Notes: generated by a model from the letters alone, not told the origin. Shown: positions 25,708 through 29,466, numbered from the stretch's first letter. The stretch is DNA of 64,000 nucleotides from Escherichia coli (GCF_003334305.1 NZ_QOWS01000015.1), one strand, 5' to 3'. Translations and numbers: made by a program.

Positions 25708-28454
<2,747 letters not shown>

Positions 28455-28477
28455 GGCATGCTCCAGGCCGAAAAAGC

Positions 28478-29134
28478 CTAGCGTAATGGAATGATATCGC
28501 CTTGCCAACCCTGTGATGAACGCTGACCGACTAACAATAATGAACCACGATCGGCGCGAACGATGAGACGACCATATTCATCCCATAGTGCACTGTTACC
28601 ACGGGCATTTGCCATCAGCACGGCAATCGAGTACTGATGTGAAAAAAATTGTAAGCGACGGGCCGACGCCAGCAGGTCGGGTTCTCCCAGACATTGCCCT
28701 GTAGTAAACAGTGAACAGGTCGGGTCCATATCCATACCTTGCGGTTGTTCATCGACCACCGTGATGGTTCTGGAACGACGGCCCAGACATGCACCATGAC
28801 TCTGATGGTAGATCCCAGGCGTTTTTCGCCACGGTGCGAACACCGCAATTCCACGAATAAAGCGATCGTTATATTCAACGGGAAGGCCGGCAATGATGGT
28901 CATTCGCCAGGTCGTTGCGGCATAACAAAGCGGGTCTAACAGTGAGAGATCGGGTGGGGCAGGAAGGGCACGTCGCGAATAATCACACCCCAGTAAAGAA
29001 AGCGATGGAAAAACTAACAGCTGACATTGTTGCCTGGCGGCGGCCCTCACAAACTCCAGATGATGAGCTACCTGTTCGGTGAGTGAGGTTTTACGAGGCT
29101 CATATTGCGCTGCTGCAACTTTCCAGAACGACAT
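28478..29134 (-). CDS. yobB: carbon-nitrogen hydrolase (nitrilase superfamily) family protein
   Basis: 218-aa ORF between holE and exoX; nitrilase-like motif context LLVFPSLSLLGC. Confidence 0.8.
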   Translation of the reverse strand: MSFWKVAAAQYEPRKTSLTEQVAHHLEFVRAAARQQCQLLVFPSLSLLGCDYSRRALPAPPDLSLLDPLCYAATTWRMTIIAGLPVEYNDRFIRGIAVFAPWRKTPGIYHQSHGACLGRRSRTITVVDEQPQGMDMDPTCSLFTTGQCLGEPDLLASARRLQFFSHQYSIAVLMANARGNSALWDEYGRLIVRADRGSLLLVGQRSSQGWQGDIIPLR

Positions 29135-29235
29135 AATGACTTCCTTTTCAAAATGACTGCAAATTATGGGTGCGGTTTAGAAAATACTCATAATTTAGCA
29201 GGCGTTATGTAAGAAAGTGTAACTCTGTATAAGTT

Positions 29236-29466
29236 TTATTTAAGTTTGGGCTCGTAAGGTAAACGTGACAGATTGACCGAAGCCAAACGGTGGGCAATAA
29301 GCCGCTCGCGAAACCAGCTGCGCAAATGTTCAGGCTGTTCACGTTCAACCGCTTCAGCGATCACCGGCATATTGTAGCGTTCTTTAAATGCCACCCCGGC
29401 CGCCGCCAAATCGACATTCACTTTATCCATTTCTGTTTGATCCAGTTTAGCCAGATTCTTCAGCAT
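29236..29466 (-). CDS. holE: DNA polymerase III theta subunit
   Basis: 76-aa product from ATG (cat 29464-29466; [27 protein letters not shown]); the track ORF is 5'-extended. Confidence 0.85.

Follow-up and report, generated by a model that had tools for sequence, protein, structure and literature searches.

The closest described systems are small amidase-type members of the nitrilase superfamily, represented here by the amidase of Nesterenkonia AN1 (3hkx), PH0642 of Pyrococcus (1j31/6ypa) and mouse Nit2 (2w1v). YobB of Escherichia coli is about 30 to 45 residues shorter than these enzymes and, as judged from alignments and a predicted model, lacks the first catalytic Glu (Ser44 in its place), the Lys, the second Glu, the Cys nucleophile, helix alpha-3 and the nucleophile elbow. 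Like pseudokinases and pseudoproteases, it appears to have kept the fold of an enzyme and lost the catalytic residues while under purifying selection; unlike theirs, its non-catalytic role is one that we infer. The yobB gene is known and annotated; the literature searched describes neither a dead active site nor a decay series for it, and full-text queries returned nothing mentioning both 'nitrilase superfamily' and 'pseudoenzyme' and no experimental study of YobB function. The evidence presented here indicates that YobB is probably a pseudoenzyme of nitrilase fold in which decay in place has removed the entire Glu-Lys-Glu-Cys set, and which is kept by purifying selection and expressed with exoX from an OmpR-controlled promoter. 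Pseudoenzymes are common, and this reading of YobB would correct a misleading annotation in a model organism.

The analysed stretch of E. coli DNA (the window, 64,000 nt) carries the locus in the order ptrB / exoX / yobB / holE / yobA, which is a K-12-type core (Table 1). All 5,426 complete E. coli genomes matched a 2-kb query over the locus, the RefSeq gene annotation agrees, and yobB of K-12 MG1655 is 100% identical to that of the window. The translation of the yobB open reading frame (28478-29134, minus strand) contains QLLVFPSLSLLGC. The interval 28478-29466, which the original prediction assigned to yobB, spans both yobB and holE, and yobB itself ends at 29134. The description of holE, yobB and exoX as co-oriented and tightly spaced is correct, with gaps of 101 nt and 23 nt. 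At the other side of exoX, the 3' ends of ptrB and exoX overlap by 4 nt (27792-27795), and overlaps of 4 to 19 nt were seen in several other genera.

Table 1. Features of the yobB locus, in coordinates of the window
Feature	Coordinates	Strand	Remarks
ptrB	25735-27795	+	3' neighbour of exoX, convergent
exoX	27792..28454	-	Exodeoxyribonuclease X, 220 aa; NCBIfam NF005937, 463 bits
yobB-exoX spacer	28455..28477	-	23 nt; GGAG ahead of the exoX ATG
yobB CDS	28478..29134	-	218 aa; predicted nitrilase-superfamily fold without catalytic tetrad
Cys148 codon	28691..28693	-	GQCLGE; not the nucleophile as aligned
Val127 codon	28754..28756	-	Cys equivalent in hhalign and G-INS-i; end of strand ITVV
Gln111 codon (CAG)	28802..28804	-	YHQSHG; most likely Lys equivalent, against Y-x-K-x-H-L
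Lys104 codon	28823..28825	-	WRK; turn between two strands, not the catalytic Lys as aligned
Ser44 codon (TCG)	29003..29005	-	Place of the catalytic Glu in F-P-E; codon checked
holE-yobB spacer	29135..29235	-	101 nt; yobB promoter region and ribosome-binding site AAGGAAG
Sigma-70 promoter	29204..29231	-	TATACA 29231-29226, 16 nt, CATAAC 29209-29204; reported promoter placed on the window sequence here
OmpR-type direct repeat	29207..29223	-	Putative; GTTACACTTTCTTACAT; conserved across genera
holE	29236..29466	-	DNA polymerase III theta, 76 aa; NCBIfam NF008207, 163 bits; upstream of yobB
yobA/copC and copD		+	Beyond holE

The nitrilase-fold context originally assigned to YobB was confirmed by a match to PF00795 (CN_hydrolase) and by the predicted fold. 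The Pfam match is significant but split (E values of 2.1e-19 and 1.2e-6): residues 5-113 correspond to model positions 1-112 and residues 116-208 to positions 149-249, with positions 113-148 (about 36) absent. Among the NCBIfam models, YobB gave only sub-threshold hits and none above cut-off. An earlier AF2 model, for which 22 close orthologs were aligned, scored poorly (pLDDT 64.9, with residues 129-180 below 50) and was superseded by a model from a 74-sequence alignment (pLDDT 93.4, pTM 0.92); this alignment includes canonical relatives and may pull the model towards the canonical fold. Foldseek comparison of the YobB model gave E values of about 1e-11 to D-carbamoylase, CPA, PH0642 and the Nesterenkonia amidase, these being summary scores rather than residue-by-residue superpositions. 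The predicted structure has the four-layer alpha-beta-beta-alpha sandwich of the nitrilase superfamily and three long helices. The one helix in the second half (residues 153-168) precedes the strand that ends in the invariant N176, indicating that it would be alpha-4 and that alpha-3 is gone. Residues 128-141 are modelled as a loop in place of the nucleophile elbow and alpha-3.

At the position of the F-P-E motif, YobB reads LLVFPSLSLLGC. The replacement of the catalytic Glu by Ser, as first proposed, was recovered in every alignment made, with Ser44 opposite the Glu in phmmer against the glutaminase domain of Acinetobacter NAD synthetase, in hmmsearch of the YobB ortholog profile against PDB nitrilases, and in hhalign and four MAFFT modes (auto, L-INS-i, E-INS-i and G-INS-i). 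E. coli YobB thus lacks the catalytic Glu that characterizes the PF00795 superfamily. Position 44 is Ser or Ala in 39 and Glu in 54 of the 93 YobB-family representatives. When counted by species loci, it is Glu (GAA/GAG) in 27, Ser (TCN) in 23 and Ala (GCC) in 3, divided by clade, and these codons would fit a path from Glu through Ala to Ser. Enterobacter-type YobB proteins conserve Glu44 at 100% although Lys and Cys are gone, a retention that is left unexplained by a simple decay picture.

PDB sequence searches with YobB or its ortholog profile reached only the N-terminal 50 to 100 residues. This is too short to place the Lys and Cys, and the comparison was therefore bridged through relatives of about 250 aa. 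Searched exhaustively, a set of 1.84 billion representative proteins yielded only 215 relatives at E <= 0.001. In 30 aligned relatives of about 250 aa, E46, K114, E121 and C146 are invariant. The profile of these relatives matches solved amidases over the full length, and its K, second E and C columns coincide with K131, E139 and C165 of the Nesterenkonia amidase 3hkx, which are taken here to be its catalytic residues. When the 22 YobB orthologs were compared with these relatives by hhalign, the probability was 100%.

In none of the five alignments against the ~250-aa relatives (hhalign and the four MAFFT modes) was a Lys or Cys of YobB paired with the catalytic Lys or Cys. The aligners disagree on the precise register of the two equivalents. 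Opposite the Lys is Gln111 (YHQSHG versus Y-H-K-I-H-L), Pro106 or a gap, and opposite the Cys is Val127, a Gln or a gap. Position 111 is Gln in 78, His in 10 and Lys in 2 of the 93 representatives, and the Salmonella protein has Lys there. Position 127 is hydrophobic in all 93, and the strand E124-127 is present in the model. Four of the five alignments leave a gap opposite the second Glu and L-INS-i puts His113 there; none of them has a Glu or Asp at this position.

The Lys of WRK and the Cys of GQCLGE, which had been put forward as catalytic candidates, align elsewhere than the catalytic residues, and neither is conserved. K104 aligns with the D-G-S beta-turn ahead of the Lys strand, and position 104 among the 22 orthologs is N, C, T, A, R or others. 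C148 aligns with the strand G-A-x-x-Y-x-x-G, which comes after helix alpha-3 in canonical enzymes, and position 148 in the 93 representatives is Ser in 35, Cys in 24 and Ala in 24. Cys116 was also considered as the nucleophile, as residue 116 corresponds to model position 149 in the split Pfam match. It was rejected: hhalign and MAFFT put residue 116 one strand earlier, and the position is Ser or Tyr in 23 of the 93 relatives. No catalytic triad was found among the 93 representatives, and the alignments revealed no relocated Glu that would complete a normal triad in YobB.

With Glu, Lys, second Glu and Cys all missing, the case for a non-catalytic protein is stronger than the original prediction made it. 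YobB would be a cytoplasmic protein in which the alpha-beta-beta-alpha sandwich is retained and the catalytic apparatus is gone, and the thioacyl-enzyme intermediate that defines the nitrilase family could not form without the tetrad. An unorthodox activity may stay conceivable, the reading of inactivity being drawn from the sequence and the model. With its catalytic machinery lost, YobB would probably not reward a search for an enzymatic function; more useful questions are what the remaining shell binds and why its conservation persists.

The order holE - CN-hydrolase gene - exoX - ptrB is common to Enterobacter, Scandinavium, Salmonella, Citrobacter, Kluyvera, other Escherichia, Atlantibacter and Pantoea sp. 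IMH. The Pantoea sp. IMH protein (WP_024968305.1, 252 aa; cluster mates from Pantoea/Erwinia), encoded in the same place, is the top-scoring full-length canonical relative of YobB. Unlike YobB, it has a contiguous PF00795 match and an intact E-K-E-C set; unlike in E. coli, a gap of 60 nt separates its gene from exoX, and the upstream spacer contains no OmpR-type box. A more distant intact relative sits in an unrelated gene neighbourhood.

The positional orthologs can be arranged in stages that begin with the intact Pantoea protein. In Atlantibacter (241 aa) and Mangrovibacter (234 aa), the Cys strand is kept and the Lys and Cys are lost; Mangrovibacter has Asp in place of the Glu and no exoX at the locus. 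Proteins of about 216 to 236 aa in Enterobacter, Kluyvera, Leclercia, Lelliottia, Pluralibacter and similar genera have deletions and retain the Glu. In Escherichia, Citrobacter, Salmonella and Intestinirhabdus (about 218 to 228 aa), position 44 is Ser or Ala. The simplest reading of these stages is the stepwise decay in place of one gene, a series that is based on positional orthology without a rooted tree and takes its intact state from one sequenced genome (Pantoea sp. IMH) and one Logan contig. An active small amidase-type gene between holE and exoX would have given rise to YobB in three steps: substitution of Lys and Cys (the Atlantibacter and Mangrovibacter stage); deletion of about 30 residues, in the Lys/second-Glu loop, the surroundings of the Cys strand and helix alpha-3 and a loop ahead of the G-x-S strand (the Enterobacter stage); and replacement of the Glu by Ala or Ser (the Escherichia-Citrobacter-Salmonella clade). 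Such orthologs would make up a natural series in which an intact enzyme loses residues, then undergoes deletions, and finally either the last catalytic residue or the gene itself is lost, and the series could be used to study enzyme death and the origin of pseudoenzymes.

Selection on yobB was estimated within Escherichia, since synonymous sites are saturated between genera (dS undefined or above 1.5), which makes inter-genus dN/dS unusable. In three divergent Escherichia-lineage pairs with unsaturated dS (0.27 to 0.97), dN/dS was 0.075-0.15 for yobB, 0.019-0.026 for exoX, 0.014-0.024 for ptrB (0.014-0.034 over all unsaturated pairs), 0.017-0.043 for holE and 0.08-0.16 for copC and copD. Two close E. 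coli strains gave a yobB dN/dS of 0.096 from 17 differences, the other genes having too few differences. These values indicate that yobB is under purifying selection, approximately 3- to 8-fold more relaxed than exoX, ptrB and holE. Absence of the catalytic residues is thus combined in YobB with purifying selection, as expected of a pseudoenzyme, and this selection suggests that the protein probably does something non-catalytic; a job such as binding or scaffolding is what we infer.

Presence of the gene was surveyed in 80 species-representative loci retrieved through ExoX. A CN-hydrolase open reading frame lies upstream of exoX in 57 of them (55 full-length and 2 truncated remnants); yobB is absent from 23 and truncated in 2, together 25 of the 80. 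The full-length gene ends 21 to 30 nt before exoX in 54 of the 55 loci, and the Intestinirhabdus reading frame overlaps exoX by 7 nt. In the loci without yobB, exoX directly follows holE, with gaps of 11 to 79 nt (78-79 nt in Klebsiella, 11 nt in Kosakonia and most Phytobacter, 23-44 nt in others). Two Escherichia genomes have remnants next to intact holE and exoX: the C-terminal 75 codons of yobB are left in E. albertii NBRC 107761 (L017), and the N-terminal ~137 codons are left in Escherichia sp. MOD1-EC7003 (L016). The gene is conserved but dispensable and has been deleted repeatedly.

Some of the sampled records are at odds with their labels. The loci of 'Chryseobacterium sp. 18061' (L048, Scandinavium/Pluralibacter-like) and 'uncultured Raoultella' (L034, Citrobacter-like) show a typical Enterobacteriaceae holE-yobB-exoX arrangement, and both records are probably mislabelled or contaminated. 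The contig of P0033 (L006), with some cluster members named E. fergusonii, shows 90% amino acid identity to E. coli in ptrB, saturated dS and 67% identity in YobB; this unexpected divergence may be explained by a wrong label or by recombination of the region.

The alternative that YobB is a functionless relic, its reading frame surviving by way of the promoter or leader of exoX or through slow decay, was weighed against this conservation. It would account for the repeated clean deletions and the two partial deletions in Escherichia species, for an amino acid divergence between genera approximately 4 to 5 times that of exoX and ptrB, for frameshifted alleles in some assemblies, and for the finding in a study of the OmpR regulon that growth was unaffected by yobB overexpression (PMC5438342). 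However, the dN/dS of yobB is far below neutrality and like that of the adjacent copC and copD, the length of 216 to 230 aa is conserved in many genera, 5,425 of the 5,426 complete E. coli genomes carry the gene, and the C-terminal motifs SALWD..G.LIVRAD and GWQGDIIPL are nearly invariant. A relic is thus unlikely. Widespread pseudogenization in E. coli, considered because of frameshifted alleles of 178 to 179 aa (P0007, P0037 and P0059), found no support: 59 of 60 evenly sampled hits in complete E. coli genomes are uninterrupted 657-nt matches, and the remaining one has an IS30 insertion.

The three frameshifted proteins share an alternative-frame tail (…DCCADGKCPW) and belong to sizeable clusters in read-archive assemblies, that of P0007 having 736 member sequences; P0007 and P0037 also carry H113Y. 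A homopolymer, A7 on the plus strand and T7 in yobB, is located at 28643-28649. These alleles, which are rare in complete genomes, may represent a lineage-specific pseudogene or assembly errors.

According to genomic SELEX, the holE-yobB spacer contains a constitutive sigma-70 promoter, TATACA-16-CATAAC, that drives 'yobB-exoX' (PMC3946193). A simple consensus promoter scan of the spacer returned nothing, the SELEX promoter included, and the promoter evidence for yobB is that of the literature and of conservation. In a 12-taxon alignment of the spacer, one element is strongly conserved, GTTACAcTTyCTTAC (29209-29223), and it closely resembles the published OmpR motif GTTACATTTTGTTACAT. This OmpR-type box has a single match in the window, where 0.06 is expected by chance. 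Of the 57 species loci with yobB, 49 contain it, and no locus lacking yobB does; its conservation extends from Escherichia to Atlantibacter and Mangrovibacter, and Pantoea has no such element. About 15 nt downstream from the second OmpR half-site, Salmonella and Citrobacter have a TATAAG-like hexamer, which reads TATGAG in E. coli. Using ChIP-exo to define the regulon, Seo et al. listed yobB among newly identified genes that OmpR binds and represses (PMC5438342), and yobB is also a member of the CpxR iModulon (PMC7657598). Regulation by OmpR and CpxR represents envelope-stress signals, not replication signals, and no SOS- or replication-linked control of yobB was found in the literature searched.

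The reported promoter (PMC3946193) and the conserved box both argue for transcription of yobB separate from holE, an outcome that the original prediction had named as counting against it. A simple scan found no terminator-like site in the 101-nt spacer, and some read-through from holE is therefore possible. In the proposed arrangement, yobB and exoX would be transcribed together from yobB's own OmpR-controlled promoter. A tempting although rather improbable reading is that YobB has taken on a new, non-catalytic task under OmpR/Cpx control, for example as a ligand sensor or as a partner of ExoX or AceF in envelope or osmotic stress. If so, it would be the first described nitrilase-superfamily pseudoenzyme with its full decay path in living relatives.

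The non-catalytic half of the role first proposed for YobB is supported by the four missing catalytic residues; the other half, a tie to replication or repair, found no support. In its specific form, YobB would assist DNA repair or replication without catalysis, for example as a partner or regulator of the co-transcribed exonuclease X. [quoted passage not shown] It is nevertheless quite improbable: exoX occurs directly after holE without yobB in 23 of the 80 species loci, Mangrovibacter has the yobB homolog and no exoX at the locus, the positional ortholog of Pantoea sp. IMH is apparently an intact enzyme, and yobB has its own promoter region and regulators, OmpR and Cpx, neither of them SOS- or replication-linked. 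The sole reported physical contact of YobB is with AceF, a cross-link that is again a weak hint. The placement of yobB beside replication and repair genes would be inherited synteny rather than a sign of shared function.

Very improbable is a hydrolase with non-canonical residues, either the YobB-specific Cys37 or Cys116 with His110/His113: at least 97% of YobB-family members have Cys37 (Val in canonical relatives), Cys116 occurs in 68 of the 93 representatives and the Enterobacter-type group retains Glu44 strictly, but Cys37 is located at the N-terminal start of strand beta-2, at the opposite end from the Glu position, Cys116 gives way to Ser or Tyr as noted above, His113 varies, no residue constellation is conserved family-wide, and the second-Glu loop and the nucleophile elbow are deleted.

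ExoX belongs to the DnaQ family of exonucleases, and theta (HolE) is a binding partner of the DnaQ-type proofreading exonuclease epsilon, which suggests that a functional holE-exoX pairing may be the real conserved feature of the locus. The two genes remain adjacent when yobB is absent (loci L042 to L094). The guilt-by-association reading would be corrected accordingly in what it pairs: holE and exoX as the conserved pair, and yobB as a passenger that can be dispensed with and has an envelope-stress promoter of its own. At the edge of the locus in Atlantibacter (L013, 1-1556) and Mangrovibacter (L014, 1-2701), a phage-type integrase gene lies just past yebY and is accompanied by Exc, ParB-like or exonuclease VIII genes, suggesting a prophage integration site.
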